From Novakomyces olei (lineage: Eukaryota), in assembly GCA_016906335.1 (NCBI GenBank), contig JADEYG010000007.1, positions 62,001 through 126,000 of the forward strand: a stretch of DNA of 64,000 nucleotides, given 5' to 3'. Positions 5,300-39,897 of this stretch are shown here, in pieces (the first letter of the stretch is position 1; every line of letters starts with the position of its first letter). The notes under the pieces are model-generated. The model saw nothing but the letters and a program-made list of their open reading frames with translations. It was not told where the DNA came from and ran no database searches. A program made the translations under genes and the position numbers.

Positions 5300-7319
5300 A
5301 TGGACGGACAACCGAATTATGATGTGGAAAAAGATGTTCACTTGGGAGCAAAGGCTGTGTCTCCCGCATCGGAGGCAGAAGTAGTTGATATCGGGTACGG
5401 TGGGCTGGTTGAAAATGTGCAGGGAAATTATAAGAAGACTATGAGTGGACGGCACGTTCAGGTAAGCCATTTGAAATATATGTTTTGCTGACTCAAAAGA
5501 TTCTCGCGTTCGGTATTTTTGTCGATTATTATAAAGGCATTTTCTAATTGTGAAAGGCGGTACGATCGGAGCTGGAATATTTATATCAACTGGACACGCG
5601 TTAAGAGAGTAAGTGTTTTATCTAAATTACGAATAAGCTAATTGAATCAGAGCTGGTCCTGGAAACATGGTTTTAGGATACGGTTTGGTTGTTACACAAG
5701 TTCTTGCGGTACTGATGGTTCTTGCTGAGCTTGTCGTGGCGTTTCCTACAAGCGGAAATTTTGTCGATTACACAAACAGATTCGTCGGTGGTGGTGAAGG
5801 TATGTCAGAATCTACTTGTATATATCTTGTTGACATTCACAGCATTTGGCATAGCGATTGCGGAATGGATAGCGTGGACATCTACTATTGGGTACTTCCT
5901 TTTTTACAAAAGTCCTGTTTTAACATACAGATTTGAAGCTTCAGCCTTTTCGGGCCTTGTCGAATTTTGGTCAGATAAATGTCCACGGGCCGTACTCATT
6001 ACAATATTTCTTGTTTGTACGCTTGCTATCCATTTTTTTCCGGTCAGAATTTTCGGTGAATTTGAATTTTTGACATGCTCGGCGCGTATAATTGTCATTA
6101 CCATTTTCATTATCACTTCTTGTGTCGTAATTGCAGGAGGTGCACCTGAAGGAGGACGCTTAACTGGACAGTATTGGCATTATGGACCCGTGTTTCATCA
6201 CGCCTTCAAAGTGAGAAAAAAGTCATTTTTCTTTTTATTAATATTCAGGGATTCATTACTTGCGCTGCACTTGCTTGCTCGGCCATTGGAGATCAAGTGA
6301 TTGTTGGTATGATGGCAGCTGAAGCCCAGAATCCTGCTATGATCATGCCTCGGTCCGTCAAGCTTACGTTCTTTCGTTGCGGATTTGTATATATGATCAC
6401 AATCATATTTATCACAATCTTGGTACCGCAAAACGACCCTGATCTCTTCAGTGAATCGTCTATTGGCGCATCACCTCTCGTCATTGCCTTCAAGCGAGCC
6501 GGGATTAAAGTTCTGCCATGTAAGTTGTTATTTTATTCTAATTTCTTTTGTTCAAATATTTTTTATTGGAATTAAAAGCTAAATTTGAACCCAAGCAATC
6601 CTTAATGGAGTCATGATTGCCGGTCTGTTGGCTATAGCCACCGAGTCGCTTTACATTTCCTCTCGAGTTTTACGTGAAATGGGTCGTCTTCGATTCGCTC
6701 CTCGTTTTTTCCAGCATGTCGATAAACGTGGTCGCCCAACTTGGGCATTAATCTTCACGGGAGCTATCGGTGTTTTGTTTTCCTATCTCAATTTGTCATC
6801 AGGTGGCACAACTGTCTTTCTATGGTTTGCAGACATTGCTTCGGTAAGATATACAGTGTTACCAGAAACATTATTTTTCTAATTTTGCAGACGGCATGGT
6901 TCTTTGTATGGGTTATGTTAAGCGTTGTGAGCCTAAGATTTCACCGGGCAATCAGGCTTCAGAGCAGCGATATTTTTTCACAACCATGGTCGTACCGGAT
7001 GCCCTTTTATCCATTCGCCCCGGTCTATCTTCTTGTATCATCCATAGTTTGCTTGGGCGGAATGATTTATGTGGGTGCGTCACCAATTGGAGCAAGCTCT
7101 TCCGCGAATAGCTTCTTCCAAGAAAATATTGGAATAATTGTCGTCATATTCTTTGCTATTGTTTACAAGATCTATTACCGCACGAATTTAGTCGACCTCA
7201 ACAAGGCCGACTTGGCTACCGGACGTTTTTATCCAACCGAAGAAGAGTCCATGGCTATGGAAAAATACAAGAGTTTACCGCTTTCTCGACGACTTTTGTC
7301 GTACTTGAACGGAACGTGA
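5300..7319 (+). CDS. Amino acid permease (APC/YAT family), multi-intron
   Basis: Spliced product RHVQILAFGGTIGAGIF, AGPG, FGEFEF, AAEAQNP, SPLVIA, SSRVL, VDKRGRP; ~8 GT-AG introns incl. 13-nt exon 5500-5512. Confidence 0.88.
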
Positions 7320-15908: not shown

Positions 15909-17662
15909 ATGATGGACCAACGGACTCGCAAATGTATGCACCGAGACGTTGTCAGCAACTTCTTTTTCAAGCAAGATCAAAGTGCCAAAGGCGCGCAAAA
16001 CCAGACGCTGGTGGCCTTATTCCGACGGAGCCATCATCCAAATATCCACACCTACAAGTATTCTAGTTCCACAGATGGAGAAATTCCCAAAGCTAATTGT
16101 CCAGGGGCAAACTTGCACCGGTTGCCGGAAGTATAGATCGGTCTGATCCGAGCTCTTTAGCGGCTGCGGCTAGAGAAATAAGAGAGGAAACTCAGCTCGT
16201 GGTGGACCGTGACATCACATTATTATACTACGGTAAACCATTTTCGTTTGCTGATGAGAGTATCGGAAGGTCGTGGACCGTTCATCCGTTCGGCTGGGCG
16301 TTTAGCAGTCCTGAGGTAGAAAATAAAATAAGCATCAATTGGGAACACTCTGGCTGGCAATGGTACCCCCCGGAGGCGGTGCTTTCGGGCGAGTTAGAGG
16401 ATCAATGTGTTCCTAGATTGAAGGACAGTTTGAGCCAAGTTTACTTTGGTCCACTAGGAATTTTTTCGCTAAACGACCCATGGATTACTGCCAAAAACAG
16501 TGCTGGCAAGGCCTTTTCGGATTGCCTCAACCGCCTCAAGTCGGATCATGAGAATGGAGCACGTGTCTTGGCCACAGAGTGTGTAAAGTGTCTTTCCCAG
16601 ATTGCACAGTCATTCAGCAAAATGGCTGTGCACAGGTCGTCTATGTCCGGTTGGTGGGATGACTTTGTTGTGGCTGCATGGCACCTGATTTTTAGCGGCC
16701 GACCAAGTATGAATGCTGCTATTAGTTCTGCTGTCCTACACAGCCTTTGGCTCGTATCAAAAGCCAGGGAGGATTCGGGCGATACCAGTCTTGAACACAT
16801 TGCGCGCACTCTCTGTGAATATGTCGAGGAAAGAAACTCTGCACCTTTAAAGATATCCCAGGCCTTTGAATTGTTTATTTCGAGTCTGGAAACAGAGGGC
16901 AAAGACGCTCATAAATTGAATATTCTAACTCTTTCATCTTCTTCAACAATACAGTCTGCCTTGTTGCATTTGCTTTTTTCTTTTCCAAAACTTCACTTGA
17001 GCTTGTGTGTATTGGAATCAAGGCCGTTGTGTGAGGGTGCCAAGTTGGCTTCGGTCTTAATACACGAAACTGAGAAAAGGGATCCCGAGCAATTGCAAAG
17101 ACTAAATATTACAGTCGCCCCGGATTCGCATTTGGCGTTGTTGGTCAAGCAAAATTGTGGGCCTCGCCAGGTTCCTAGTATCTTACTTATTGGTGCCGAC
17201 AGGATAAGTTCTCTGGGCGACGTATCGAATAAAATGGGGTCTTTTTCGGCGGCTATTGTTTCAAAGTCACTATCGCCCAAAACGAAAATTGTTGTTCTTA
17301 GTGAGATCGACAAGGTTGCACGGCCATTGGATTTGACACTTGCTGATCATATTACTCATGCTACTGAAAAAGAAAGGAGGGATTTGAGCGAAAGGGAGAT
17401 GGCTGAGCACATGGCAGAAAATAACAACATCAGTGAAGTGACTAAAATATGGACAGAAGCGGGTGCTGGGCAGGATACGAGTAAAGTTCTAACCCGGGCA
17501 GTGCAAAAACATCATGTTTTAGTTCAGAACGTATACTTTGAATGGGTTCCATCAGAATACATTGACTCTTATGTCTGTGAGGATGGAATGCTTAACCAGT
17601 CAGAGATTTTACAAAAGGCAACAAGCATTGGCAAACTCCATAAACAGTTTTTTGGCGAATGA
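15909..17662 (+). CDS. Nudix hydrolase - eIF2B/ribose-phosphate-isomerase-like (IF-2B family) fusion protein
   Basis: Exon 1 VVSNFF..VALFRRS, intron 16058-16104, Nudix-like box GSIDRSDPSSLAAAAREIREETQL; IF-2B motifs RPSM, TLSSSST, LESRPLCEG, LIGADRI, NKMGS, FEWVP. Confidence 0.82.
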
Positions 17663-18296
17663 TATGATTAAGGCAAGCGAATGTTATTGTGCATTCCATT
17701 ATTTCCGCGTGATTCTTTTTTGGATTTGGTTGATTTTGATAAATTTAGAGTCGTGAGGTTACGAGTTTTAATATTAAAGATTGTCCGAATATGCTTTCAC
17801 TCAGGACTGTTTGGAATAGATTGTATATATATAAAGTCCTTTTAGGTTGTAATCTTATTGGTAATTCGCAAAATGAAATGAAGCCAAATAGAACTCGCGC
17901 CTTAATTTAACTCAAATAACCACAATACATATTCAAATAGCCACAGTGTTAATTTCAAAATTAGTATAGGTATTGCCATTGGCTTCACCGAAATCTATGA
18001 TCTACGAAATTTGTTGCTCGGATCAGTACAGGAACAAAGCCGATTGAGTTTAATCAACGGCGGTTCGCAATCACGTGCGAGTGATCGCATGGAGTTTGAC
18101 GTTTATGATTACTTGTTTTATAATCCGTCTACTTTGCATTATCATAGACCGTTATCGCTAGTAAGTAACATAACGAGCAGAACTTTGTCACACTCCAGAG
18201 GTGAGCAAACTCGTTCACTAAGGCTATTTGGACTGCGAAGGTTTGGGCAATTTAGACTTTGGATGTTTCCAATAAGCGCTAAAAGCATGCGTGTTC

Positions 18297-21144
18297 ATGA
18301 GTGATCAAGATGCCCGCGTAGAGTCGGGCGACAATCGTCCGCTCAAAATTAGGCGGGCAGCGAGAGCCTGTCTTCAAGTACGTGCAATTATTATCTTTAT
18401 TTAATTTCAAGGCTCTGTTTCTCTGTCCATTTTGGTTTCAGGTATCCTTTTTCATTTTCGTTTATTCGATTCTGTGTCTGGTAAATGCTGTACAAGAACG
18501 ATCAAGCCTTGTCGGCACTTTATGTTTGAGATTTCTTAATATGTTGTCATGTGTTAATCCAATAGTGTCGCACAAGAAAGCAGCGATGCCTCCCTGTCAA
18601 CGATTCTGACGATCTGCACTCACCGTGTGCGAGGTGTGCTCATCACGATATCACGTGCTCGTTCGAGACAGATAGTGTCGCAGAGTCTGAGGCTGGTTCT
18701 TTATCGTCATTACAATTAGCTCAGCTTGTTGTTAACTTGCAAAGAAGGTACTGCCCACTGGATTTATATGATTTTCTTACTATCGTGCTCTGATCCTAAC
18801 AATACAGTGTTAATGTTCATGAGAAGCGTATAACAGATCTCGAAAACTGCGTTCGCCTGCAGCCTAAAAGTATTTTAAATCCAGCCAATTTGCAAAGGTG
18901 CGCCAGCTTATACGTCTCAAGCTAATAGTTCATTGAAGTACTTTTACCGATGAAGCTCCTTTACCTCCCCCCGGCTCTGAAACAGCCGAGTATGGGTTTA
19001 ATACTATTGAACTCGGGCCGCCCATAACGACATTACGCACGCTTGGAGAGTTGTCTGACATTCGTACCCAAAAGCCTTTGAATAATTCTTCAATGGTATC
19101 AGCAAATGCGACGCGGTACCAGTGGGCAGATCCAATTGCAAATGGTATTTTGTCAGTGTTCGAAGCACAGCAAGCTGTTGCAATGTAAGCGTTTCTACGG
19201 GGTCTTTTACGGATTATTGCCAATACAAAGACAGATATTAGTCATCAACGCCTGCATTCATAGCATGCTAATATACATAGCTTTTTCGACTTTTGCCATC
19301 CATCCGCGCCGTTTCTGAACGAATCTTCACATCGCTCTATAGCTAAACTTCGCTCTAGTCCGGCGCTTTTTCTTGCTATTTGCTGTATCGGCTGCCGTCA
19401 TTGGACTAGCTCCGCAAGGTGAGTTAAAATTGGGTAGTAAAAAAACGTTTATAAGGAGAAAAGCTTAATTGGCGACTGATTGTGGAAAAAAGCCGTCTGT
19501 TACAACAAAAGATCTTTGTCGATTACAAAATTTACTCACAGATCACAGTCAGACTCGCTGTCTTCATCCAAATTTTTTCAGACTCATTGATGTATTGGAC
19601 TCTTTTATATCGCAAATTCTCCTTAAACCGGTACCTCATGATGTTAATTTGGACACTCTGAAAGTACTTCTTTTATATGCCCAATGGATGTCTTGTTCTG
19701 AGGAAGAAGGCCACCCTGGCAAGTTAAAAGGAAGATACAATGATATTAGTCTCTGGGCGGTCCTCGGATTGGCAAGTCGATATGGCTTATTAATGGGCCT
19801 TGATCGTAATGCTGTTGCACCTTTCCAGACACAAGCAACCGTCACAGAAGGACAGATCTCTAGGTACAGAGTATGGCTGAATTTGCTCACTTGCGACTGC
19901 CTTTTAATGCTTACATCGGGCTTGCCTTCTTCACTCGATCCTACTCCGGCTGCTAACGTGGCACGAAAATTTTGTTCATTAAATTCACAGTCTCCGGGCG
20001 ATGCACGAATAGCGGGTCTTCTAGAATTGGCCGCAATTGCTCACAGGCTAGGCCATAAATTTGACGGGACTGCAACTCATGAGGAAAGTCTGGCTATTGC
20101 CAATCGGCAAATGATTGAATGGGAGAGGTAAGCGCAACCATGGTAAACTTAGGCTAACATTTATAGATATTGGGAACCTAAACTACGTAATTTTATGAAA
20201 TATTTGTTTTTAATTTTCTGTCTCGAACTCCTTAAATCCATTTAATATTATTTGCTTTTATTCTGTTTCTTTTTTGTTTGTCTAATTTAAGGTCAAACGG
20301 ATATGCAACATAGTCAGTTGCCTTTCAATTCTTTACGGGTAAGTTTGCGCATAATAATTTGTACTAAGTATTGCAGTGGTACAGATTAGCGCTAAATAGC
20401 GCTACGTTACGACCCCTCCTTTCGTCGCAGACTCATTCGGCACGTCCTAATCTACAAATTTATCATTTAGAATCGTTGGACATATGCCTTACAGCCGCTG
20501 AGCAAGTCTTATTTTCTTATGCTAGTGGTAGTGCAGAAAGCATCTGGACAGTCGAGTCTCAGGATGTAAACACGTTTCCCTCTGGACACCTTGAAATTGA
20601 TCAATATTTACTCACTCGATTGCACTATACTGTCGATTCGACCTGGATCTCGTTGGCGTTTGCTCTCACGTTTCTGACATTATGTTATTTGCGTGGTATG
20701 ATTGATGGTAAGAGGATATCAATGTTGAGCATCAACAGGATCAACAATTTTCGTAGACGCTGTTTTGTTGAAAAAATTCTTTTTTGACCTTCTTTATTTT
20801 ATTTTTTTTTTCTGTGCTAATCCATCAAAGATGATTTGCAAATATGCGCAATGGCACCGCATCCGGACGCACTTCAAATTTGTGCGCCTCTTCCCCCTCG
20901 ACCCGCCGCTGTGATTTCAAGGCTGACTATATTGGCGCGTGATCTGTTTAATGGTATTAACAAGACTCCAGTATTTGGGCCGGCCCGAGAGTTTCATGCC
21001 ATTGTACTAAATGCTGCGTCTATTATCTTATCAGAGAATGAAGTAAATGGAGCTGAACTGGATGATTTGGCCATGCAGTCTTTACTTAAAACAATCAGCG
21101 AGTCGTTCACAGATTGGCCAGACGGTCTTTTTGAAGCTTCGTAA
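18297..21144 (+). CDS. Zn(II)2Cys6 transcription factor, multi-intron
   Basis: RRAARACLQ|CRTRKQRC...PCARC..HDITC across intron 18378-18565; downstream helical middle-homology region (FCHPSAPFL, LLLYAQW, RVWLNL). Confidence 0.82.
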
Positions 21145-21235
21145 TCAATGGCAATGATCCTTTTGTTAATTTTGTAGAGAAAGAGATTTTATTAGTCTAT
21201 ATCATCAGGAATGTAGGCGCTTTTGTCCCCAATAA

Positions 21236-21661
21236 TCATTGATCAAGCTCGAAGCATATATCCTGAGCGCCCTGCCATAGAACCAATTCACCAAGTGCCC
21301 TTAAATTTTCCGCTCCATCAGTTATTGTCAAGAAATGGTTTGCAGCCAATTGGCCCATTTTACTCGCAAACGAAACTCCTCCATAGCAGAATAAAAATTC
21401 TGTCTCAGAATAGCCTCCCGGGTATAAGAGAATATGGCCTGGAGCAGGATGGGAAGTGTGGTTTTCGAATGGCACTCCAAAGTCTTTTTCACCTAATGGT
21501 ATCCACATGCCCTCCCCGCTCCATCGAACATGAATCAGTTTTTGATTATAGGGCATCAATTGTCGAAACATCTCAATCGTCTTGGGTGCATCCTTCTCAA
21601 ATTTTGCTCGAAAGGTATAAGGGCCCGCTTTAATCCGTACAGTTTCACCAACATCGCCCAT
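21236..21661 (-). CDS. DUF3830-family (cyclophilin-like fold) protein
   Basis: Intronless 141 aa; APKT, HVRWSGEGMWIPLG, ENHTSHPAPGHILLYPGGYSETEFL, FASKMGQLAANHFLTI match my recollection of DUF3830. Confidence 0.8.
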   Translation of the reverse strand: MGDVGETVRIKAGPYTFRAKFEKDAPKTIEMFRQLMPYNQKLIHVRWSGEGMWIPLGEKDFGVPFENHTSHPAPGHILLYPGGYSETEFLFCYGGVSFASKMGQLAANHFLTITDGAENLRALGELVLWQGAQDICFELDQ

Positions 21662-21998
21662 TTTGACGTTTAAGCTTTTGCACTATCGTTTTGCAAGACT
21701 GGTGTAATCGCGTATCCATTACATACATAATTTAGCTTTACTCTTAATGTTACTTGAATTCTAGATACACATTTCATGAGATAGAGATAATCTGTGGCAA
21801 CTTCCCTTATCGGTCGGAACAAGCGGTCTGCGGACCGAGCGGGCCTTATCCCGACGTTAGCCCACGCGCCTAACGTGGGCTCATCAAATATTTCTTGAAT
21901 AACCCTATATTATAAACCCGATAAGGAACAGTAATCACAGACGATCTCAGCAAGAATTAAATAATCTCTATCACTGTTCATATACTAAACCAAAACAA

Positions 21999-23324
21999 AT
22001 GGCGACAGTTCTAACACACACCCGCACATACCAGAATGTGTCTCCTCGATCGCGTGGCAGAATTACTCTGGAGCCGACTGACTCGTTTGTGACATCCGGC
22101 GGCCTAACTGTCTCTCCTATTCTCGATTACGGCAACGACTTTTTCGGTGCTGAAGTATCCGGCGTCGACTGGAGTCAGCCTGTCTCGCCCAAAGTTGTTC
22201 AAGAGGTATTTAGTTCCATTAAGCAACGTCAAAAGTTCACACATCCTAATATTTTAGCTTGTGAAATTGGCCGACAAGTACGCAGTTTTGATATTCCGAC
22301 AGACTAAGCTCGACAATAAAGGGCATATTGCGTTTTCCCAGCAGCTTGGCTCTGAGCTAGAAGTCAATCCTTTCTTTTATGGAATTGAGAACGACAGGCT
22401 TGCTGAGCCGTTTTTATGGGATGTTGCAAAGTATGTAAAAAGAGATTTAATTTACAAAGCATCGAGATTTCTAAACAATACAGCATTGAACGTGACGGAT
22501 CGCTGGTAAAGCCAAATTCAAGAAGATGGCACCATAGCCTCGGGAATGCCTTATGGCACACTGTACGTTTAAATCTTCAAGTCGTTAATCAAGCTAATCC
22601 TTAAGGATTCGTCGTATCACCAGAAACGTTCAAAGTACTCTATTTTGCTGTCTCATGGAAATCCCAGCAAAGGTGGTTCATGGACTCACTTTTCCGACAC
22701 TCGAAAGGCATACGACGATCTGCCGCAAGATATCAAGGACGATATAGAAGACGCTATAGTCGAGCACGAGTAAGATATTTTGGCGTATAATCCTTATTAA
22801 CTTCCAGCTTATGGCACTCCCGAAAGCTCGGATCTCCCGAAATCTTTGGAAATCCTTTACCACATGAACTAGCATCCAAACCTCCTGCTTATCATCGACT
22901 AGTTCAAACTGGGCCAGATGGCCGCAAGACATTATACTTGGCTGCTCATGCCAAACAAATCGTAGGACGGAACTTTGAGGACAGTCAAAAGCTTATTTGG
23001 AAGCTTATCGAACATTGTACGCAGGAAAAGGTAGGGAGCTTGTATCAATTCCAGTCTCTTTCTTATTTCTGCTGATTTTACCTATACTCATTTCTGAAAA
23101 TGCTATGTAAAACAAGTTTACTAATTTATAAGTACGTCTTTAGTATGGAGTGGCTCAACGGCGGTGATATGGTTTGGTGGGATAATCGGCAATGCATGCA
23201 TCGCGCTAACCCTTATACTACTTCAATGACTGCGCGCGACGTTCGCAGGTCGACGATTATTGACGACGGACCTTTGGCACATGGCGCTTTAGACGAGCTG
23301 CGGCAAAAATCAAGTTCTGATTAG
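21999..23324 (+). CDS. TauD-superfamily 2OG/Fe(II) dioxygenase, TfdA (2,4-D dioxygenase)-like
   Basis: Spliced FGAEVSGVDW, AVLIFRQT, GNALWHTDSSYH (HxD), THFSDTRKAY, WWDNRQCMHRA, RDVRRSTI; ~5 introns. Confidence 0.85.
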
Positions 23325-23851
23325 CTCACCCCGTAATTTGGCTCGATCGTATTCTGCAAATAGAGTGGGACCTTTAAGGCAAACTTTACGAATTATTTAG
23401 TCTCATATTTCGCCCATTTAATGAATTACTGTCAAATGCTCTCCCCTCGCGCGATAAGAGGAAACTCCTAATATGTTTCCATGTTGTCTACATATACTTG
23501 TCAAGATGTTGTCTCAAGAGATATACAGTGATTAGGGTTAATATCAGGTTGGCTAAAATCTGTTTTACAAATTATTTCTTAAACATTATTACTTGGCAAT
23601 GTAGATCGCTGCTAAAAATACGATAAAAATAGCAAGAAAATCTCCAATTCAAGCAATTCCCCGGAAATATGCCGTGATACGGTATATCCCTTAACTTGGC
23701 ACATAACGCATTTTTGTCTTACTGCGCTAAAGCGGCTTAAAAACTTTGCTTCAAGAAATCTACTGTTCGGAAAGATGTATCCGGGACGAGGCCTCTGTTC
23801 TCTAATATTCAATTAAATCTATAAAAAAGTCATTCTTGGACTCTATGAGTT

Positions 23852-26539
23852 TCAAACGTTTTCCGAAAAGCGTTTCCAGAAAGAAGTCGGTTCAGGCTAA
23901 AATTAAATATTAGTATGAGTTAAATAAAACCTCTCATTTTGAAATTTACCTTTGCTGCGATCTCATGCGAGGCACCGTTGACAAAATCCATATCTTCGTA
24001 TTTGATAACCTTAGTTTTATGATAAATTTTATATCCGACAAGAAGGACGGCAAAGAACGGAATAGGGAAATATGTCGTGATAAACGCCGAAGTATCGAAG
24101 CTGTGTACTAGATCATGTAAGCAAAAAATAAATAATGAAGAATGAAGAATGGATGCCGAAGTGTTATATTTCTTCTCAATCCTGGACTGTAGAACTTACT
24201 GAAACTGCTGAAGCCGCCAAATATTAAAACAATCGTACATACACTGATCCCGTCTATAAGCAAATGGTTAGCTTATTAAACAATCATGTTGTCATAAACA
24301 TACAATAGCTGAGATAAGGCTGAAATGGTGCTTTGTATGGCAGAGTATTGCGATCAATGCCTTGTGCTTTAAGCCCGTTTTGCCATCGAAGGTTTGTAAG
24401 AAGAATTCCGGTCCACGAGATCATGCCGCAAATTGCAGTCATGTTGGAGACTATAGGTTATTAGTTTCGAAAACTCCAATATCGAATTTAAAAAGATAAT
24501 TGAACAATAATCAAACAATAACATTTGGATTCCTCTTAGAACTTACAATAACCAAAGACAGTTCCAGCTCGGCCATGCTGGTCAGCAGCCATGAACGAAA
24601 GCAGAGCAAATGCACCGCAAAACAAGACACAGACCCACGGAAGGCCATCTTTACGTGTTTTGCCAAATATTTTAGGAGCATGGCCCCGGCTGTACAAACC
24701 ATACAAAGTACGCGATGAAACATAAAGATCTGCACAACCTGCAGACCATGCGCTAGTCAATAAAGCTGCGTTGATTATCGAAGGCAAAATACGAATTCCC
24801 GAATTCTGTAAAAATTGAGACGTTAGTACGATGCAGTCGACCAAATTATCAATTTATTCTTACGCTGATTGCAATAACAAAAGGGCTTCTGGCAGCAGTC
24901 GAACCGAGGTCCAATGATGGGTCATCTGGAGACACAAGCAGACCAATCTATTTTTAAGATTAGTAAACAAAAGATTGTTTTTCACATACCATAAAAGCGC
25001 TGATAACGTAGACTAGCAAATTAAACCACAATAATGTCAGCACATATACACCTGAAATAATCTAAAACATACAAAGGACAAGTCTAATCCAAACACTTTT
25101 GATCGCTTTCGGAACATTTCGGCGAGGCTAATAATGTTAGTATTAATGTACCAATATTTGACCTTACGTTTTCTGTTTCGGCTGCAGCTATGGCAGTAAT
25201 TTCAGTACCGATAAAAGCAAACGCAGCATTGATAAGGACTGTGATAAGGTCAGTTTACAAACTAAACTTTGCTTTTGACTCCAATTTTGATATTGGATAT
25301 TGCTTTAATACTTACCGCTAAAAAACCCAAGAAAACGGCCTTTAGCACCAGCAATCCCCTGATATTGCACAAACCCGCCAGTTTGATTCCAAAAACGAAA
25401 ACCAATCGCTTCGTGGTTAGGTCCACCACCGGCAGTAATGACAATCCCCGTTATAATCAACCCAACGACGGTAATGACCTAAAATTAAGAATTTTATATA
25501 TATATTCCTTTTTGTATACCTTGATTGAGCAAAACCAGAACTCCATTTCACCGTATAGCCAAGTGCCTCCAAAATTTACAATATACTAAGTCATTAGAGA
25601 GTCATTGCTTTTTTTTTGGTATAAACGAACCACGACGATAAGCATAAGTCCGACCCACATGGCATTACTGCAAATTCCAGTTGTACATGTTGAGTCGGGT
25701 CGACTTGCTGGAGTCCAATACGAGATCAAAACAGAGGCAGCAGATAACTCAGCCGGAAGTACGACTAAACAATTATTCATGTTAATATTTATGATCCAAA
25801 ATTTTTAAGTGGTCATAACATACTTATATAACTTTGTAAAAGGTTAGTCAATCCTTAATGTCAAAAGTTAATTCACTTACTTGTACCAAAAGAGCACGCC
25901 CATAGCGAAGCCAAGCTCAGGAGAGACGAATCTTCCGGCCAGCGCAAACTGGCCTCCAGGCATGGGAAATTGAGTAACCATTTCTCCCAAAGCCACCTTG
26001 AAAATAAGTTTAGCTTTTTGCTAGAAGACGCAAATTGTTACCATGACAGAGAATAAAAGCGCAGACATAATACAATATCCAAGCAGCAATCCCAAGGGCC
26101 CACCATGCTGCAAGTCGCTGGCAGTACCTAGAAAAAGTCCCGTTCCCTTTATTTAACGATTAATAACTACTAAGAAAACTAGGATTGTTTGTTCACTTAC
26201 AATTACTCCTCCAATTGCTATCATTTGCCTAAATACGGCGTTAGCTCGATCCAAGTAAACGATACGCTTACAAATGACGCGGCTTGTTATGTTAGCTTAG
26301 TTTCGTACACAACCAAGAGGGAGCTCAGTAGACAGAAAAAAATTAAACTAATATTATTTTTTAGGCGCAAAAGCAGTACCTTAAGAGATCTCTGTAAATT
26401 GACAGAATCGTTTCGTTCTTCAACAACGCCGACATCGTCTGAAGATGTCACTTGATTGGCCTCCAGGCCAGCGGTTTTCTCGTTTTCCTATAGCCATGGC
26501 TCAGTCTCGCTCGTCAATTTAAATTTTCCATACCGACAT
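23852..26539 (-). CDS. Amino acid permease (APC/YAT family) with ~18 introns
   Basis: Spliced [82 protein letters not shown]; stop at 23852. Confidence 0.85.
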
Positions 26540-26714
26540 TACTGTAATTTGGTGAAAAAAAGTGTCGAAATTAGGCTGCTTTATAATGTTCAACGCCTCA
26601 AAAGTCAAACGGCCCTCAGGCAATGTATATGTAGTCAAATAGAAAATCTATATACGATGTAATTGTTGAAATTTGTGCTCCGAATATGATTTTTTTTTCC
26701 AAAGTTCACCTTTT

Positions 26715-26905
26715 ATTTTAAATAGTGCAACAATCTTTATCTAGATAAGGGTTAAGGCGATAATACCACTTATCAGGAATTTTAAAACTCCGGCTAAAAT
26801 TCCGCGATCGCCGTCGGGAACAGCGGGATATTAGCCGACAGGATCCGAAAATCATTGATAAGGATAACACAACGTGTAAACTGTTTCAAGCTATACCTTA
26901 TCTAA
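26715..26905. promoter_or_regulatory. Cluster of GATA-factor sites plus CGG/CCG triplets in the divergent permease/aldolase promoter
   Basis: ttatctagataag, gataat, cttatc, tgataaggataa, cttatc; ccggct..ccgcg..ccgtcggg..gcggga. Confidence 0.55.
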
Positions 26906-26954
26906 GAAACCTTTCTTTCGCATCAAAAAAGGCGAAGACAGCACTAAAAATCAA

Positions 26955-28332
26955 ATGACAAGATCAATTGGCGAGCCCCGGCCTTTACCTCCCGGCCTTT
27001 ACGGTCCATTGCCAACCTTTTTCACGCAAGACCAGGAGATTGATTATCAAAGCTATGGGAAACATACACTTCGTACGTCAAGATGTTGATTAAATTGACT
27101 AACTTCAAGATCTTGCAAAGAATGGAATAAGTGCGTTTCCTGCCTTTGTTACTTTCTAATACTTAACAATAACAGTTCCAGTATGTATGGGATCACTAGG
27201 CGAGGCAGTGCATTTGGTAATGATTGAACCGCATATTTCTTTACATTGGTCTTCCCATTTTTCTAATTGTTTAGAGCTTTGAAGAGCGCATAGATGTCAT
27301 CAAATTTGTCCGCTCTCTGCTCGACCGGGAAGGCCTATCTGAAATGCCTATTGTCGCTGGAGTTGGAGGCTCGAGTACTCGTGAGACCATCCGACTCAGT
27401 AAAGCAGCAGCAGACGCTGGAGCGTAAGTCATCTCTACTCTGCAAATAATCTTATTGTCCAGCGATGCAGGGATGGTGATTCTACCTGCTTATTACGCGG
27501 CTGCCCTGAATTCTGATCAAGATCAAGTCATACAATATTATGTTGATATCTGTGAAGCTTCTCCGGTAAGATTCGTTTTAATTGCTCTTTTCTTATTTCC
27601 ACGCAAAAATGCCTTTGTTTATTTCTATTTTCATTTTAATAACGTCCAAGATTCCAATTTTGTTGTACAATTTTCCTGCAAATGCAGCAGGCCAGGACAT
27701 GTCTTCGGAGGTTATTGAATCAATAATTCATCGTGCCACGAATCTGTGTGGAGTAAAACTGACGTATGTGCAATCGCTTTTAATCAACCAAATCTAAATT
27801 TGATACAGCTGTGGTGGAAGCGTGGGAAAGCTAATTAGACTCACGGCTGCTTTCCGGGAAAATCCGCATCTGAACGAAGCCCGCAAGTTCCCTTTTTTAT
27901 TCCTAGACGGCTTGATTGCCGATTTCATGCCATGGATGGCATTTGGCGGTCATGGGACTGTAAGCGGTGTGCCCAATTTTGCTCCAAAAGCAAGCTCGCG
28001 CCTTTGGCAACTTTGCACAAAATCGGAACCTCTGGAGCCAGAAGAGAAAAAGGAGGCAGAGAAAATACAGGCTGTTCTTTCTAGAGCAGACGCTTTTGCT
28101 GTTCCTGCCGGAATACGAGGAATGAGTAAGCCGATCATATTTAATAAATAATAAATAAATATAAGAACGACACATCAAAAGCTAACTTCATTTTATAGAG
28201 TACGCACTGCACAAGCTGCATGGGTATTCTGTGCATCCGAGAAAGCCGCTGTTACCTCTGAGCGACAAGGAAGGTGCCGAATTTTTCAAGACTCTAGACG
28301 AGCTCGTTGCTTTAGAAAAAACAATAGTTTAG
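26955..28332 (+). CDS. DHDPS/NAL-family class I aldolase (copy 1), multi-intron
   Basis: RPLPPGLYGPLPTFF, GSLGEA, IVAGVGGSSTRETI, ILLYNFP (Tyr), CGVKLT (Schiff-base Lys), GTVSGVPNFAP, PRKPLLP. Confidence 0.87.
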
Positions 28333-29596
28333 AGAACACTTTTCGTGTATGCTCAGTAACCGAGAAAACTCATCGGAGAGCAATACATACTACTAGATAC
28401 TTTAAGCAGATCTAATGATCTTTAGCTGGAAATGCAATTTAAATGCTGAATTACTTTTTGGTGCGAGTGACCTACCATTGGAGGTGCATTAGTCTTTACT
28501 GGTTTATATTTATTTCTTACCACGTTTTATGTAACAAGAAAAAAGATATACCCGTGCGTATTAATTCGCGTTGCGCATTACATAATCAATTATACTTGTC
28601 TGTCAACTATCTTGTTCTAAGTAAATTATGCGCGGCGCAATCTACTTGATGTCTAGTTGGCACGTTTTATAAGTAATATTCTAAAAAGCTTTGATGCCAA
28701 CCCTTGCCTGACCCTTTCTGTAATTCCTATATTCTCTCCGCCCCCTCAAATTAAATTGGTTTAAAACTTGGGTATCCGGCGAACAACAGTCGAGCAACGG
28801 CCAAGATCAAATATGGACTTTATATTTATTTAGAAAACTTAGCCTCCTTCTGCGAAATCGAATTTGACTAGAATCAGGAGGTTTCGCTCAAACCGCTGGA
28901 CTGTTCAAGACAGAGCGGGGACTATATAAGGAAAGGATATCCGGAAAGGAGAACTTTCTTGTCATAAGATAAACATTTCGTAAACGAAGCTTAGTTCACT
29001 CACTCTATTATATAATTGAAAAAAAAATTCAACGACTCTTGATCGACGCGAGCTATTCATGGGACTTCCACATACCTTCCCCATGAGATCGACAGATCAT
29101 ATCTAATCATAGAATTAATTTCATGGGGTAGAAACTTCGAATTACTAATTCGGACTTAGTACAGTGTCTTGTCGCAAGAATAAATTTGTAATCAATCAAA
29201 TGCATATATAGTATTATGTAATGTTCTATTTCTACAAAGATTCTACAAATTAGTCTTCGGCCGGATTAATTAATTATTCTTTTTGAGGCAACGTTTGAAG
29301 TCGCAATTTATAATCAAGACTGAGTCTGGCCTGTCTATATACATTTGGCGTGGCGAAACTCGCAGCGGTATAAAGTAAACAATTCTGCCCTTTTGCGCCT
29401 CTATTTGTGTGCCGGCTACAAAGAGCAGCAAACACGAACATTATCTAATTTCGTATTGCCTTCCCTTCTCCACAATCACTCGGCTTGTATCAGGAGGCAC
29501 AGTATTGAAGGCATAATAAAAATAAACCAATGCAATTACGTTCGGTAGCAGCAAACTGAAACGGCCTGCAAATATTGATCATTCAGCGTCTCAGTC

Positions 29597-34236: not shown

Positions 34237-35948
34237 ATGCGCGTTGCCGTGATCGGAGCAGGCGTATCTGGTGTAACTACTGCTGCTCATTTAAAGTCTG
34301 AAGGTGTAAAAGTCACTGTGTTCGAGCGCGCATCAACATCGGGCGGTGTCTGGTAGGTAAAAACGGAAAATCAAATATATGCAACGACCCATGCTGATGG
34401 TTTAGGGTTTATAATGAGAAAAAACCGCCAGAGCCGACATACCCATCACTAATTGCTTCAAAGGCCGAATATGCCTATCATAAAGACGGAGACGTCACCG
34501 ATTCTGTAAAGCATTCGCCGCCAACGTAAATTATATTCAACTTGCTCATTAATTTAACTAACAAAACAGTCCCTGCTATAAATCGTTATATAACAATGTG
34601 CCCACACAGCTGCTTGAACTTAGTGTTCACAAGTGGAAACAAGGAACGGGTCCTTTTGTTCCCCACCATACGGTAGCGGATTATATTCAAGATACGGCAA
34701 GGGCAACAAGTGTCGAGGACGATGTGCAGTACAATACAAAAGTCGAGAATTTATGGAAAGAAAATGGACACTGGAAGATACAGACAGTGACTCGTGCTTC
34801 TTCAGCTCCTGAGTTTCGAACAAGACTTTGGGTATTATACATTGTTTCTTTATTTGATTTTTCTTTTCTGTATCCGTTTTTTAATAGAGGTGTTATCTGC
34901 TTCTACTTTTTGACATGACCCAGAAATTTCGTCATATCTAGCATAACTAATAGTTTAGACATTTGGTGCAGTCGTAGTGGCCAGCGGACACTATAACGCA
35001 CCATTAGTCCCAGCCTTCGACGGCTTGGCCGAATGGAAAAATGCTTTCCCAGACTATATACAGCACTCCAAATCTTATCGAGGCGCACATGGATTTGAAA
35101 ACAAGGTAATCAAATATAATTTAGAGCAAACATATGATTTTTCAAATGGTTGTTTTAATTGTGCACACTTGAATACTTATTCAGACCAGAATGTGCTTTT
35201 GATTGGGGGTGCGACATCTTCATTCGATATTGCAAAAGATCTTAGCCCACACGTGCACAAAATATTTCAGTCTACGCGAAAAGGGCTTTTTGATCATCCA
35301 GTGGAATGGTTACCGTCAAATGCTCTTCAAGTAGGTCCTATCGCTTCATTCAACACCCTCATTGAAGACAAAGAAGGCAATCCTTCAGATTTAGGCTCGG
35401 TTACCCTTAAAGACGGGGCCGTTTTAGATCAGATCGATAGAGTTATTGTCTGTACTGGTTATCAATTCAGTCTTCCCTTTATACCCGCAAGTCTTCATCG
35501 CGATGACATTTGCAGCGCAAAAGCCGATGACAAAGTTTTAGTGACGGACGGTACTATGATACACAATCTGTTTCGTGACATTTTCTATATTTCTGACCAA
35601 ACTCTTTCTTTTGTTGGGATACCTTATCACGTCGCCACTTTTTCGCTTTTTGAGTTTCAGGCTATTGCAATTGCCGCTGTTTACTCTGGCCAAACAAAAC
35701 TTCCGTCAGAGGCTGATATGCGTGCGGATTATAGCCTCAAGCTTGAACGAAATGGAGTTGGCAAAGCTTTTCATTCCTTAAAGAATAAAGATATTGATTA
35801 CGCAGCAAATTTGATGTCTCTGGTGAATGCAGGAAGGCACATGCCAAGTAGAAAGGCGGAAGGCTACACTCAAGAATGGATAAAGCAACGAGATTTCCTT
35901 GCATCGAGGATTAATACTGTGAAGGAAAAAGGAGTTAGTATCAACTGA
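34237..35948 (+). CDS. Flavin-containing monooxygenase (FMO-like, class B)
   Basis: RVAVIGAGVSG, FER..GGVW, ASGHYNAP, HSKSYR, CTGY; four GT-AG introns; an alternative ATG at 34222 is possible. Confidence 0.87.
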
Positions 35949-36047
35949 GCCGACTTAGTTTGACGATATAGCAAATTTGCAACTGAATTTTTCACATTTT
36001 AATTGATTCTGCAGTTCTTCATTTACTTGTATACTGCAAGGCAAATG

Positions 36048-37079
36048 CTATAGTTTACTGGGCCGAGCTTCCTTCTCTACAATTCGCACTATCCGATCAG
36101 CAACACCCCAGCTAAGCTCGTATCCACGTCCGCCAGCACCGTACCCGTGCACGATAACTTTCCCATCCAATGTATCCTCCTTCTCAATCCTCAACCCGCC
36201 TTTGCGCCAGGGCCGACGACCTACATTAACCCCAATAACATTGAATTTTGATACATCATCCACGAAATCAGGAAAGTTCCGAGCTGCTGCCTGCAAAAGC
36301 TCCATAGTCTCGTTCTCCCTGGGCTCTGTTCCAGGGTCACCAGGCTGCTTTGTGCCACCGACAACTGTGCCTCCTCCAAGGGGCCGGGGTATAAGGAAAG
36401 ACCAGGTATCATCCTTATTATGTCTCGTAACCGTTTGATGATAAGGATTAGATACTAAAACAGTCTGCCCGCGTATATACTCCATCTTGGAATCGGTGTC
36501 AAAGTTTCTGCCGGAGCAATTTATTATTATTTTCGCTTTGGGCACCAAAGCAAAGGCTTCAGTCAATGACGCAAGTTTTCTTTGCTTCACGACGCCATGA
36601 AACTGAGAAAGCAGATAGCGCAAGTACACGTGCACATTTATGACGTAACTCAGGTACTGACAGGCCCATACAGTTTCCGCCTTGATTACAGTAAAGTCCG
36701 GCAAAGACTTTGCTAATTCCGCCAGGTCGCCGCCGTTTTGTAATTGCTCTGCTACTGGCGGCACGTATTCTGCATACTCAACGCCAGGAACTGACCTGAC
36801 CCCTGATTGAGGCATTTTTGCAAAGGCATGCATTTTTTGGGAAGTAAATGCTGCCAATTTGTGTTCATCTTTTAGCTGTGCATCTTCGCCAAAAATTGGT
36901 CGAAAATGGGCGCCTGCCCACATTGAAGCATAGTCTGCCGACGGCCTTTGCTGTTTGAAGGGGAAAGACTGTGGCAGCTCGGCGGCAATTACGGTAATTT
37001 TGGAGCTGGGAATCCGCTCTTGCAGCGTTATGGCCGTGCTCAGACCGAGCACACCGGCTCCGACTATTACAATCTCCAT
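36048..37079 (-). CDS. D-amino-acid oxidase / D-aspartate oxidase family, peroxisomal
   Basis: IVIVGAGVLG, YASMWAGAH, RGQTVLV, GRRPWR, HGYGAGGRGYELSWG; C-terminal SKL (PTS1). Confidence 0.88.
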   Translation of the reverse strand: MEIVIVGAGVLGLSTAITLQERIPSSKITVIAAELPQSFPFKQQRPSADYASMWAGAHFRPIFGEDAQLKDEHKLAAFTSQKMHAFAKMPQSGVRSVPGVEYAEYVPPVAEQLQNGGDLAELAKSLPDFTVIKAETVWACQYLSYVINVHVYLRYLLSQFHGVVKQRKLASLTEAFALVPKAKIIINCSGRNFDTDSKMEYIRGQTVLVSNPYHQTVTRHNKDDTWSFLIPRPLGGGTVVGGTKQPGDPGTEPRENETMELLQAAARNFPDFVDDVSKFNVIGVNVGRRPWRKGGLRIEKEDTLDGKVIVHGYGAGGRGYELSWGVADRIVRIVEKEARPSKL

Positions 37080-37426
37080 TATTTGATCCTTTGCGCGTAG
37101 CAATGTTCGACCGTGTTATTATATGATGATTGGTTGATAGCGTATAACTTTACTTGGACCATTTTCAGATAACGTACGAGAGAATAAAAAGTAGCAAAAA
37201 AGTAGCGAGAAATTTGGGGAAAAAAAGTAAGAAAAAAATTGACCTGAAACTAATAGTGTCTACGTAGTATATTCGTCTATACGGAAACTGTGTACAATCC
37301 CCGTTCTATGCAATCTGCATGCAGCGTTTACAACGCTTCTGCTTTCTCTTCAATCGCGAATAATACGTGAAAAAACACTCGCACGAGGTTTTTTCAATCT
37401 TATATCGTCATGTGATCAGATACCAA

Positions 37427-37476
37427 AGGGGTTATAAGTGGGGGCCAGGGCCCGGTGGGGGTCAAGTGGGGGCCAG
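37427..37476 (+). promoter_or_regulatory. G-rich element with three GTGGGG (CreA/Mig1-type SYGGRG) sites and a 13-bp direct repeat aagtgggggccag
   Basis: gggg..aagtgggggccagggcccggtgggggtcaagtgggggccag in the DAO/2OG-oxygenase divergent intergenic region. Confidence 0.5.
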
Positions 37477-38448
37477 ATCGTCCCACAACTAAAGTCGGCG
37501 GGTGAGAGCTAAACCTGTCTCATTTAATAAACTTGTTATCGACTCTTCTGGTCTATATAACGTCGTGTTGAACAAAAGCGCCATGAACGATGCAGTCTTT
37601 ATTAGCTCTCTTTGCACAGAAGCATTGTTTACATTTTAAGTCTTATAATAAATTTGCATTCTGTGGATCATTGCTAGAAATTTACAAACGTTCTGAAGGA
37701 GAAGTACAACGCAGCATTATTTTATATGCATTGGCTCAGCCGTTTGGTCATTAACATTTAATAAAAGACGCCCATTTGTAGCCATTGCGATTTTCTTTTC
37801 GAGCATGGAGGTAAGCTTTAATCTAAAGAATAATATTGCATTAGACTTCAGCCATTTATTTGGCTGAATACGTTACTTATCTTTCACAACACGTGCCTAT
37901 ATTTTATAATATTAAATCATTAAGCGCCCACAAAACTTTACCTATAGAAGAGCATCCCGCATTTATCGCGTGGGCTTTGGCAAGTCAACGATCTGCTTGG
38001 CTTCAAGGCGCGTGTCAGAGATACACAAACATAGACTGCACTCAATACCAACCGTCAATATCAATGGAGCGGTTAACATTGAATCATTTATAAAGAATCA
38101 CGACACGCTGTATTGACAAAACCCTTTATTTTTTGGTGGCCCATTTCCTTTGGTGGGGTTAAATTGCAAATCCCGTATTCGCAATATTGGCAAAGAAAAA
38201 AATTATGGAATATTTATTATAATAATAGTGTATAATACAGATTGACTGACATTTGGCATTTGACACCTGACTCAAACGATAGAGCAAACGTTACAACTGA
38301 GCAGAAAAAGGGAGAGTAAAAAAAGCCAAGAGAAAAAGGGGCAAAAGAGCTTCACTATTGAAGCTCAGATCTAATCCTCCAAGTTTTTGGTGCCTTGTTC
38401 CGCCTCCACCATTAATCAACTACCCCACTTTTACACTTTATTGGAGCA

Positions 38449-39798
38449 ATGTCGTTTGACGCAATACCAATACTGAACTTGTCAGAAGCGCGCGATGCAA
38501 AAACAAAACCAGATTTTTTACAAAAATTACGCTATGCCTTGCTGCATGTCGGTTTTCTGTATATAAAAAACACCGGTGTAGAAGAGCCGCTGATTAAAGA
38601 GGTCGTGCAACAGGGAAAACAATTTTTTGACCTTCCAACAGAGAAAAAACTGGAGATTGAAATGAAAAATGCTCCAAGCTTCCTCGGATACAGCTGCCTC
38701 GGAATGGAAGTCACACGATTCAAAATTGATTGGCGTGAACAGTATGATTTGTCTACGCCCCATGCTCCCCGAAAAGAGACTGACCCCTTATACTACCATC
38801 TTTTAGGCCCTAATCAATACCCCGACCCCGAGTACTTGCCCAACTTCCGGAAAGTATACGACGAATATATGCGGCAAATGTCGGTAATGAGCCTCTATTT
38901 CACGAGCCTAATAGCCGAGTCTATCGGGCTGCCAGAAGATGCTTTCAACAAGTTTTTCGACAAAGGTCAACAACACAAGTTAAAGATAATAAAGTACCCT
39001 GATCTCGACGAACTTGGTATCGACAAGGACATGGAGACACAGGGCGTTGGTCCTCACAAAGATTCTATGCTGACTACGTATCTTTTGCAGGCTTCTCATC
39101 ACAAGGGTCTGCAAGTACAAAATCAGCATGGTGATTGGATCGATTGCCCACCGATTGATGGCACTTTTGTCGTTGCCATCGGCCAGGGTCTCGAGGCACT
39201 GACCAAGGGAGTTTGTCAGAGTACAACGCACCGTGTCCTCAGCCCGCCTCGCGGAAGCGGGCCAAGGTTCAGTATTCCGTTTTTCCAGGGCGTGAGTTAT
39301 GATGCCTCTTTTGAAAGTATGGATGTTCCACAAAGCGTTCTGGACCTGCGCAAAGACGTTTTGCAAAACACGGGGACGAGTAGTGTCGAGTCTACATTCA
39401 GTCAGGGCAAATGGGACCATTTAGGGTCAGCAACGCTATGGAATCGGATAAAGTCACATCCTGATGTTGGCGAGAAATGGGTATGCCGAGTCTTCACTTT
39501 GTACTATTTATATATATCTGTATATATATGCGCGCTTTTCCTGGAAATAATTTGTAAAATGCTAATACCGTTTAAAGTCTTATTTTGATCGTCATTATTG
39601 TCGTTTATTGTTAACCCCTTCTTTTTGTTTTGAGAAAAGTATTTTTCATCAGCACCACGCGCCTGGTTTTTGATTGCCGTCCATTTGTTGCATACTGACA
39701 CCCAGTTCCCTGGAATACTGGCCGATATCCGTCAACAGCAAGCAAAAGACGGAACTATCTCTGATGTCCCCACACGCAACAAGGCGGTCGCTGTTTGA
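38449..39798 (+). CDS. 2OG-Fe(II) oxygenase, isopenicillin-N-synthase/DIOX_N-like
   Basis: IPILNLS, VGFLYIKN, FFDLP..K, GVGPHKD (HxD), TTHRV, RFSIPFF; intron 39481-~39705, last exon ends TGA 39798. Confidence 0.88.
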
Positions 39799-39897
39799 AA
39801 TCCCCCCGCCAAAGAAATATTTTGGTTAAAACGCCTCCCGAAAACCAATCTAAATAAATACAAGTGAACATTCAGGCCGCCGTGTAAATGCAGAAAC

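Follow-up and report, generated by a model that had tools for sequence, protein, structure and literature searches.

Gene content of the cluster

We analyzed a 64,000-nucleotide stretch of the Novakomyces olei genome (hereafter, the window; contig JADEYG010000007.1 of assembly GCA_016906335.1, positions 62,001 to 126,000), in which a preliminary description made from the sequence had pointed to a candidate catabolic gene cluster at positions 18297..28332. Using Pfam and homolog-guided gene models, we found five intact genes there, encoding a Zn2Cys6 regulator, a DUF3830 protein, an Fe(II)/2-oxoglutarate (2OG) dioxygenase, an amino-acid permease, and an aldolase of the dihydrodipicolinate synthase (DHDPS) family (Table 1). 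Very probably, these genes act together as a conserved catabolic cluster whose substrate is a small acid containing nitrogen. All five tightly packed genes were found where the preliminary description had placed them, and its two divergent pairs, with spacers given as 337 and about 415 bp, were measured at 337 and 415 bp. The gene models were built with a minimum intron of 30 nt and corrected by hand, and Pfam was run on stop-to-stop pieces of the genes. The window has a guanine plus cytosine (GC) content of ~42%, and the cluster genes carry short GT..AG introns of 37-85 nt. An independent DNA data set showed zero differences to the window over 18000-28600.

Table 1. Genes and shared promoters of the cluster (positions in the window)
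Feature	Position	Strand	Remarks
Zn2Cys6 transcription factor	18297..21144	+	several exons; ATG 18297, stop 21144
DUF3830 (cyclophilin-like) protein, 141 aa	21236..21661	-	single exon; PF12903
Shared promoter DUF3830/dioxygenase, 337 bp	21662..21998	.	divergent spacer
TfdA-type Fe(II)/2-oxoglutarate dioxygenase, 345 aa	21999..23324	+	6 exons: 21999-22205, 22258-22430, 22484-22562, 22606-22769, 22808-23030, 23133-23324
Amino-acid permease (AA_permease / AAT family)	23920..26539	-	~14-15 exons, inner borders approximate
Shared promoter permease/aldolase, 415 bp	26540..26954	.	divergent spacer
DHDPS-family (HOGA-like) class I aldolase, 331 aa	26955..28332	+	8 exons: 26955-27072, 27110-27130, 27176-27216, 27275-27423, 27463-27565, 27651-27763, 27809-28125, 28199-28332

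Conservation of the cluster in fungi

Scanning metagenome contigs with the DUF3830 protein yielded three fungal contigs (L001-L003). On L001, a 133-kb contig, the dioxygenase (-) and DUF3830 (+) genes are divergent, and a divergent pair of permease (-) and aldolase (+) lies directly on the other side. The N-terminus of the dioxygenase, DUF3830, and the regulator are found on L003 in the same arrangement as in the window, and L002, which ends at the DUF3830 start, holds DUF3830 and the regulator.

For named genomes, we took as co-location the same organism with an equal contig size, or neighboring locus tags; the match lists for DUF3830, the dioxygenase, and the aldolase are incomplete, so that the following counts are lower bounds and non-matches carry no weight. 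The dioxygenase lies on the same contig for at least 18 of the 41 NCBI-named DUF3830 matches listed, and the shared contigs include three of just 9.4, 21.9, and 26 kb. Two Penicillium angulare assemblies carry DUF3830 and the dioxygenase under consecutive tags (N7456_013726/013727 and N7478_011355/011356), and six further unnamed contigs of 8.5-45 kb also link these two genes. Among the 27 NCBI-named aldolase matches listed, at least 12 share a contig with the dioxygenase and at least 8 with DUF3830. The aldolase and the dioxygenase are linked, for example, in Clarireedia (ACMFMG_001097/001100), Cudoniella (g4354/g4355), Sporothrix eucalyptigena (002250/002252), and the basidiomycete Cryptococcus amylolentus (L202_04410/04413). 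Overall, linkage of cluster genes by tags or shared contigs was seen in Penicillium, Clarireedia, Sporothrix, Cudoniella, Lachnellula, and Cryptococcus. A deposited protein of Cudoniella acicularis (P0175, 1543 aa) is a mis-fusion of the neighboring permease, regulator, and dioxygenase.

Neighborhoods of these genes are thus kept on L001-L003 and, for DUF3830 with the dioxygenase and for the aldolase with the dioxygenase, in at least 18 and at least 12 named genomes, respectively, which bears on the synteny that the preliminary description had put forward as a check. Because this synteny recurs in other fungi, the grouping exceeds chance, and the idea of a real, evolutionarily conserved cluster is borne out.

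Clusters of catabolic genes with their own regulator are already known in fungi. As described in PMC5746545, the nicotinate hxn cluster of Aspergillus nidulans likewise combines a transporter, oxygenase(s), a dedicated transcription factor, and divergent GATA promoters, and it is also conserved but rearranged among fungi, although the gene set of the window differs. This gene set and any role of DUF3830 are new to the literature that we searched, in which we found no pathway with these genes, as the preliminary description had supposed, no paper mentioning DUF3830 (PF12903), and no described function for any of its members.

The DUF3830 protein and its bacterial relatives

PF12903 was recognized on 21239-21661(-) with an E-value of 1.7e-28 and 99.8 bits against a cut-off of 26, covering profile positions 4-140 of 143. 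The family comprises 1338 representative clusters (50% identity) at an E-value of 0.001 or better, and the protein of the window is 70-82% identical to fungal and 52-69% identical to bacterial members. An alignment of 72 fungal and bacterial sequences contains 19 invariant columns, which include S48, E50, E66, S85, E86, E88, Y93, and N108, and H44, R46, K101, and H109 are nearly invariant in it. This pattern of conservation suggests one conserved active site.

The AlphaFold2 (AF2) model of the protein has a predicted local distance difference test (pLDDT) value of 93.1, and Foldseek returned for it 3kop first (template modeling (TM) score ~0.8), then KslB/McbB (0.7-0.8), and then cyclophilins. 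The structure 3kop, a cyclophilin-like protein of Arthrobacter, has the same fold and is a distant member at 18-20% identity, found by the DUF3830 profile search at 8.9e-6. The Pictet-Spenglerases KslB and McbB are 14-17% identical to DUF3830, a likeness in fold only.

No informative domain fusion was found among the 12 longest proteins of the best 150 representatives, ten of which are DUF3830 alone, one a piece of a transposase, and one a P-protein fragment. The last of these, P0273 (223 aa), joins a fragment of the glycine-cleavage P-protein to DUF3830; it is the sole glycine-metabolism fusion seen and may be a gene-calling artifact. A quick, midpoint-rooted tree places the 14 fungal rows in one group (Shimodaira-Hasegawa-like approximate likelihood ratio test (SH-aLRT) 94), whose neighbor is a bacterial group to which the Chloroflexia purine-operon genes described below and the gene of locus L005 belong, with a large bacterial set from unrelated contexts behind a long branch.

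In bacteria, the nearest relatives of DUF3830 are found in operons for purine/ureide catabolism. For these loci, genes were called with attention to GC at third codon positions (GC3) and annotated with Pfam and NCBIfam. Three loci of Chloroflexia (L082, L091, and L092) carry xanthine dehydrogenase (XDH)-type subunits, DUF3830, and then a PnrA-type nucleoside ATP-binding cassette (ABC) transporter, and L083 matches this pattern by its gene sizes. The XDH-type Mo-subunit gene lies directly upstream of DUF3830 in L007, L082, L091, and L092, and, by clustering only, in L011; these subunits were called by Pfam and stay below the NCBIfam equivalog cut-offs. L082 also encodes an allantoinase and an 8-oxoguanine deaminase, both above their cut-offs. 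In other loci, a guanine deaminase gene is directly upstream of DUF3830: in L016 (586.7 bits against a cut-off of 351) and, by clustering only, in L018, L020, and L021. L018 also has PuuE-like, OHCU decarboxylase, and flavin genes.

Enzymes acting on ureides are found as well. For instance, DUF3830 of L008 is accompanied by a PuuE allantoinase (489.6 bits against 424.6) and an allantoate amidohydrolase (604.7 against 479), in addition to an OHCU decarboxylase, an HIUase, and a flavin urate-hydroxylase-like gene. L087, from Novosphingobium, carries a purine nucleoside permease, a guanine deaminase above its curated cut-off, a LOG-family gene, and an adenosine deaminase, and L081, with a DUF3830 that is 69% identical, has an AtzD/TrzD ring-opening amidohydrolase in addition to three other amidohydrolases. 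Genes of the ureide pathway (AllB/PuuE, AllC, AllE, AllA) and the purine genes upstream of it thus surround the DUF3830 genes of bacteria that are nearest to the fungal ones. The fungal cluster, in contrast, is without ureide enzymes.

A different composition is seen in L005 (7251-17283, high GC), where a DUF3830 that is 65% identical is found with two DHDPS-family genes, a TauD-family dioxygenase, an aminotransferase, an ABC transporter, a carbamoylase-family M20 amidase, a short-chain dehydrogenase/reductase, and a class II aldolase. This locus may be a bacterial counterpart of the fungal cluster, assembled from non-orthologous members.

The dioxygenase, the aldolase, and the permease

PF02668 was found on three of the five exon pieces of the dioxygenase (E-values of 3.7e-8, 2.4e-5, and 1.2e-6) and is carried by every full-length relative. 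As a proxy for structural comparison, we used a full-length ortholog (P0128), which matches the window dioxygenase at 229 of 345 residues. It aligns with the 2,4-dichlorophenoxyacetate/2-oxoglutarate dioxygenase TfdA at 9.6e-45 (5bke, residues 44-328) and 1.9e-43 (5j92), compared with 2.4e-18 for AtsK, 6.5e-14 for TauD of E. coli (1gqw), and 1e-18 or weaker for other TauD/AtsK-type chains. Its HxD motif, distal histidine, and 2OG-binding arginine align with those of 5bke, and the motifs WHTDSSY, MHRANPY, and RDVRR are present in the spliced window gene. We therefore assign the dioxygenase, from its sequence, to the TfdA subgroup and not to the TauD or AtsK type. Enzymes of the TfdA type hydroxylate the carbon of X-CH2-COO- and release glyoxylate.

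TfdA is the best solved relative and shares the iron and 2OG ligands, but the fungal enzyme has an N-terminal extension of ~40 residues, is encoded by a multi-intron gene, and is paired with DUF3830, whereas its bacterial relatives are not. Of 401 Pseudomonadota genomes, 13 contain such a relative at a threshold of 1e-30, and none exceeds 42% identity. As they are unlinked to DUF3830, the pairing appears to be a fungal invention. All three of the closest bacterial relatives (L146, L147, and L148) have a RidA-family (L-PSP) gene within ~1.5 kb, two of them also have an Inhibitor_I78 gene nearby, and valine-catabolism-like and dihydroxyacetone kinase genes are found in the vicinity.

PF00701 (DHDPS) was detected on two of six pieces of the aldolase, and the spliced model is open and contains the GVK lysine, the LYNFP tyrosine, and GSLGE. 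Its full-length ortholog P0208 (identical to the window aldolase at 225 of 332 positions), which served as a proxy, matches 3qfe, an uncharacterized DHDPS-family protein, at 1.1e-32 and human HOGA1 (3s5n), a mitochondrial 4-hydroxy-2-oxoglutarate aldolase (HOGA), at 7.4e-23. HOGA1, with which the aldolase has the class I DHDPS-family fold and the catalytic residues in common, seems to be the closest characterized structure, although the similarity is only moderate and 3qfe is closer. P0208 and HOGA1 align at the GSxGE motif, at the tyrosine of LY(N/S)xP, and at the Schiff-base lysine of G(V/M)K. The Schiff-base lysine that the preliminary description had attributed to enzymes of this family is thus kept, together with the tyrosine, and the best characterized match is an aldolase of a 4-hydroxy-2-oxo acid. 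A true dihydrodipicolinate synthase was rejected, as P0208 reaches 99 bits with TIGR00674 (dapA) against a cut-off of 206, and the NCBIfam equivalogs dapA, KDG aldolase, NanA, and KdgD are all far below their cut-offs. The aldolase gene includes a 21-nt micro-exon (27110-27130) between introns of 37 and 45 nt.

The permease carries PF00324 (AA_permease) on five of seven pieces and matches residues 44-530 of P0175. It is a generic member of the AAT family, and the names of its Protein Atlas matches are likewise generic, with a "putative arginine permease" at rank 2. From the sequence, we placed its start at 26539, where a first exon of 6 nt (ATG and one codon) and a 46-nt GT..AG intron together take up 26488-26539, in preference to a start at 26497, which was rejected; an assembly indel at this place was ruled out, as an independent DNA run is without an indel there. 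Both this exon and the micro-exon of the aldolase are probably easily missed by automatic gene callers.

The regulator and the shared promoters

The first intron of the regulator gene splits its zinc-cluster motif, CX2CX6C..CX2CX6C, so that the six cysteines are read across the junction of exons 1 and 2; Zn_clus reaches 19.7 bits on exon 2 alone (18566-18793), just below the Pfam cut-off of 21. For the middle domain specific to fungal transcription factors, no Pfam family was found at an E-value of 0.01 on the exons at 19469-20131 and 20368-20787. These exons are 45-51% identical to the regulator genes of L002 and P0175. The regulator matches residues 535-1161 of the fused Cudoniella model as well as the genes that lie tail-to-tail with DUF3830 in L002 and L003.

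Each of the two shared promoters contains six HGATAR sites, corresponding to 17.8 and 13.1 per kb against 3.5 per kb window-wide (for the permease/aldolase spacer, the density was computed over 26498-26954, with all six sites within 26737-26898). Six or more such sites occur in just 1.1% and 2.4% of windows of the same length. The GATA motifs that the preliminary description had noted in both promoters are therefore present and enriched. The CGG motifs that it had also reported are present too: paired CGG..CCG and CGG..CGG sites are 2-4 times denser in the spacers than in the window, with a central CGG/CCG patch in each (21805-21853 and 26788-26848), but for the plain triplet the densities of 23.7 and 24.1 per kb show no enrichment over the 21.5 per kb of the window. 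The enrichment of HGATAR in both promoters fits the use of a nitrogen source, and control of the cluster by a GATA factor responding to nitrogen is probable and can reasonably be proposed from these sites.

A site shared by both promoters for the regulator is not supported, because k-mers of 7-9 nt common to the two spacers show no excess over random segments, and the dioxygenase/DUF3830 spacers of the window, L001, and L003 align poorly, with a mean identity of 55% and no clear block. One motif, CGG[N]AACA[N]GCGG, occurs in the window only at 21815 and 26815; it was spotted by eye, is absent from L001-L003, and is a lead only.

A possible pathway and its alternatives

Four things are established here: what the genes encode, their catalytic motifs, the retention of the cluster among fungi, and the purine/ureide setting of DUF3830 in bacteria. 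From them, we infer a substrate class, a role for DUF3830, a role and a direction for the aldolase, and a mode of regulation. The route that we favor, tentatively and with more doubt than confidence, consists of import, alpha-hydroxylation, cleavage by DUF3830, and handling of glyoxylate by the aldolase. The permease would import a small N-substituted glycine-type acid, X-NH-CH2-COO-, in which X would be a carbamoyl, amidino, or acyl group; hydantoate, guanidinoacetate/creatine, and an acylglycine are candidate substrates. The dioxygenase would hydroxylate the carboxymethyl carbon, as TfdA does on phenoxyacetates, and the product, an N-substituted alpha-hydroxyglycine, would be of the same chemical type as ureidoglycolate. 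If the nitrogen of X is amide-like, this hydroxylated product would be a stable carbinolamide and a lyase would be required. DUF3830 would then split the adduct into glyoxylate and a nitrogen compound (urea, guanidine, or an amide), as we propose that it also does with ureidoglycine or ureidoglycolate in the purine operons of bacteria, and the HOGA-like aldolase would interconvert glyoxylate plus pyruvate and 4-hydroxy-2-oxoglutarate, as HOGA does. The genes would be controlled by the pathway-specific Zn2Cys6 regulator and, probably, by a GATA factor according to nitrogen supply.

We propose this order because a stable product would need a lyase and because glyoxylate is the single metabolite common to TfdA chemistry, HOGA chemistry, and the last ureide steps, in which ureidoglycine and ureidoglycolate end in glyoxylate. 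A similar logic is known from the peptidylglycine alpha-hydroxylating monooxygenase and the peptidyl-alpha-hydroxyglycine lyase, which amidate peptide hormones and in which alpha-hydroxylation of an amide-linked glycine followed by a lyase gives glyoxylate. These enzymes belong to unrelated families (a copper monooxygenase and a zinc lyase), however, and the fungal route would involve neither copper nor a peptide, so that the likeness is an analogy only.

A broader version of this proposal, which we regard as unlikely though worth stating, is that DUF3830 is a new enzyme family acting on N-carbamoyl or N-amidino alpha-hydroxy- or alpha-amino-glycines with release of glyoxylate, and that it accounts for both a bacterial ureide step and a fungal two-enzyme route. 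The ureidoglycine/ureidoglycolate step would be an unrecognized one in many bacteria without AllE and AllA, which produce glyoxylate from an N-carbamoyl alpha-substituted glycine, and in fungi a TfdA-type hydroxylase would have joined it, so that the two enzymes together remove the carboxymethyl group of N-substituted glycines such as hydantoate, guanidinoacetate, or creatine. In the favored reading as well, a replacement of AllE and AllA, whose cupin-type folds differ from that of DUF3830, is suggested because both are absent from all five genomes with DUF3830 in a purine-type locus that we searched (G001-G005): the AllA-type ureidoglycolate lyase was found in none of them, with a positive E. 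coli control, and ureidoglycine aminohydrolase (TIGR03214) was above its cut-off in none, but these absences are weak, as the genomes are mostly metagenome-assembled and of unreported completeness. The AllD family is present in one of the five and the M20 allantoate-amidohydrolase/carbamoylase family in all five, within the DUF3830 locus in three; the lack of allantoicase from all five is uninformative, as its control was silent.

Several other observations weigh against these proposals. Many bacterial DUF3830 genes are found in unrelated contexts, such as with propionyl-CoA carboxylase/MeaB (L013, L015), with a molybdopterin oxidoreductase and lactate-utilization genes (L017, L090), with cystathionine-beta-lyase-like genes (L027, L028, L036, L093), or with HicB/thioesterase/AlkZ (~15 near-identical marine loci). 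Directly beside bacterial DUF3830, neighbors from the upper pathway (XDH, guanine deaminase, nucleoside-binding protein) are commoner than enzymes at the allantoate level. No DUF3830 or DHDPS gene was found near the dioxygenase relative in the six bacterial loci examined, and only one of five genomes with the closest such relatives has DUF3830, on another contig. Moreover, HOGA-type enzymes normally cleave, which fits poorly with a route that releases glyoxylate, and fungi already own a ureidoglycolate lyase of the DAL3 type.

The preliminary description had instead proposed the import, hydroxylation, and retro-aldol cleavage of a non-standard amino acid used as a nitrogen source. Here, hydroxylation at C4 (or C3) would be followed by deamination outside the cluster, by a general transaminase or oxidase, and the DHDPS-family enzyme would give pyruvate and an aldehyde, while DUF3830 would be an accessory enzyme acting, for example, on an imine or a cyclic intermediate. 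This is possible but rather doubtful. In its favor are an amino-acid permease as the transporter and a HOGA-like aldolase with its Schiff-base lysine; the families recur together, and FAD amino-acid-oxidase-like genes are at hand in the window, which also has a second DHDPS-MFS-TauD group (56.8-62.9 kb; MFS, major facilitator superfamily) and a TauD-DAO-permease group (1.6-7.3 kb), although their two TauD genes are of a different, TauD/RdpA-like subtype. L005 brings both enzyme families (one TauD and two DHDPS genes) together with DUF3830, an aminotransferase, and a carbamoylase-family amidase, but its TauD and DHDPS proteins are only 30% and 26% identical to the fungal ones. The fold of DUF3830 resembles KslB and McbB, which bind amino acids, yet the dioxygenase is nearest to TfdA and not to the known amino-acid hydroxylases of its family, the conserved cluster is without a deaminating enzyme, and the purine-operon placement of the nearest bacterial DUF3830 genes is left unexplained. 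Thus, of the earlier proposal, the conserved cluster, the GATA-rich promoters, and the Schiff-base aldolase stand, whereas C4 hydroxylation and subsequent cleavage would need a deamination that is not encoded in the cluster, and DUF3830 is given no role. In another reading, the dioxygenase would hydroxylate a purine, a pyrimidine, or a related N-heterocycle, playing the part of XDH, and DUF3830 would process the oxidized ring product; the XDH-type Mo-subunit genes directly upstream of DUF3830 in four bacterial loci and the guanine deaminase genes preceding it in L016 and L018 point in this direction. Fungi also offer a TauD-family precedent in XanA, which serves them for xanthine, as described in PMC5746545. 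Nevertheless, we consider this quite unlikely, given that the source names of the fungal matches cite TfdA and not XanA, which suggests that, among reviewed proteins, TfdA is nearer, that the transporter is an amino-acid permease and not a nucleobase carrier, and that the aldolase has no obvious place in ring catabolism.

It may also be asked whether the cluster is one pathway at all. The dioxygenase/DUF3830 and permease/aldolase pairs could be independent and held near each other by a common nitrogen-scavenging regulation: their relative order and orientation differ among Cudoniella, L001, and the window, Cadophora malorum has its aldolase on another contig than its dioxygenase, and the two promoters have no more k-mers in common than expected by chance. 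Many Penicillium genomes have the dioxygenase/DUF3830 pair and no Penicillium is among the 29 aldolase matches listed, but absences from these matches are uninformative, and the four genes are close neighbors, no more than a few genes apart, in several ascomycete classes and in Cryptococcus, so we give this explanation little credence. TauD-family oxygenases and class I aldolases occur in natural-product pathways, and with this precedent the genes might together build a modified amino acid, as a small biosynthetic cluster whose permease is an exporter. The flanks of L001 carry a P450, an adenylating enzyme, a methyltransferase, and a polyketide-cyclase-like gene, but these are not conserved with the window, where no core synthase is found in or beside the cluster. 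The wide, housekeeping-like conservation (70-82% for DUF3830 across classes) and the GATA-rich promoters suit catabolism better, which makes a biosynthetic role very improbable.

Other genes of the window

Directly upstream of the cluster is a 521-aa frame (16097-17659) with NUDIX and IF-2B-family (methylthioribose-1-phosphate-isomerase-like) domains; L093, one of the bacterial loci, has a NUDIX gene after DUF3830 too. A second nutrient-scavenging group is found at 1639-7316, with a TauD/RdpA-like dioxygenase (1639-2680, +), an FAD-dependent oxidoreductase of the DAO family (3064-4377, -), and a second amino-acid permease (~5535-7316, +). At 56805-62882, a DHDPS-family paralog (~56805-58033, -) that is ~50% identical to P0208 lies with an MFS transporter (59451-60972, -) and a TauD/RdpA-like dioxygenase (61651-62882, +), without DUF3830. 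Between these groups, the region 34959-42012 contains the second Zn2Cys6 regulator of the window, which has Fungal_trans_2, together with another DAO-family gene, a flavin-containing monooxygenase (FMO)-like gene, and a DIOX_N/2OG-Fe(II) oxygenase. Two GC-rich stretches within 40001-46000 (0.52 and 0.50, compared with ~0.42 elsewhere) correspond to this second Zn2Cys6 gene and to an unassigned 410-aa frame at 43892-45121. Taken as a whole, the window resembles an island of genes for oxidative scavenging.

Significance

The fungal cluster links DUF3830 to a defined partner, the TfdA-type dioxygenase, and the bacterial relatives tie it to purine/ureide breakdown, so that both contexts narrow the candidate chemistry and the cluster gives DUF3830 a testable role. 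If the proposed chemistry is true, a new enzyme family would be named and a gap in bacterial purine catabolism would be filled. It would also mean that a nitrogen-scavenging pathway extends across ascomycetes and some basidiomycete yeasts, and the fungal "TfdA-like" genes, which are widespread and at present take their annotation from an enzyme that degrades a herbicide, would gain a first natural substrate.

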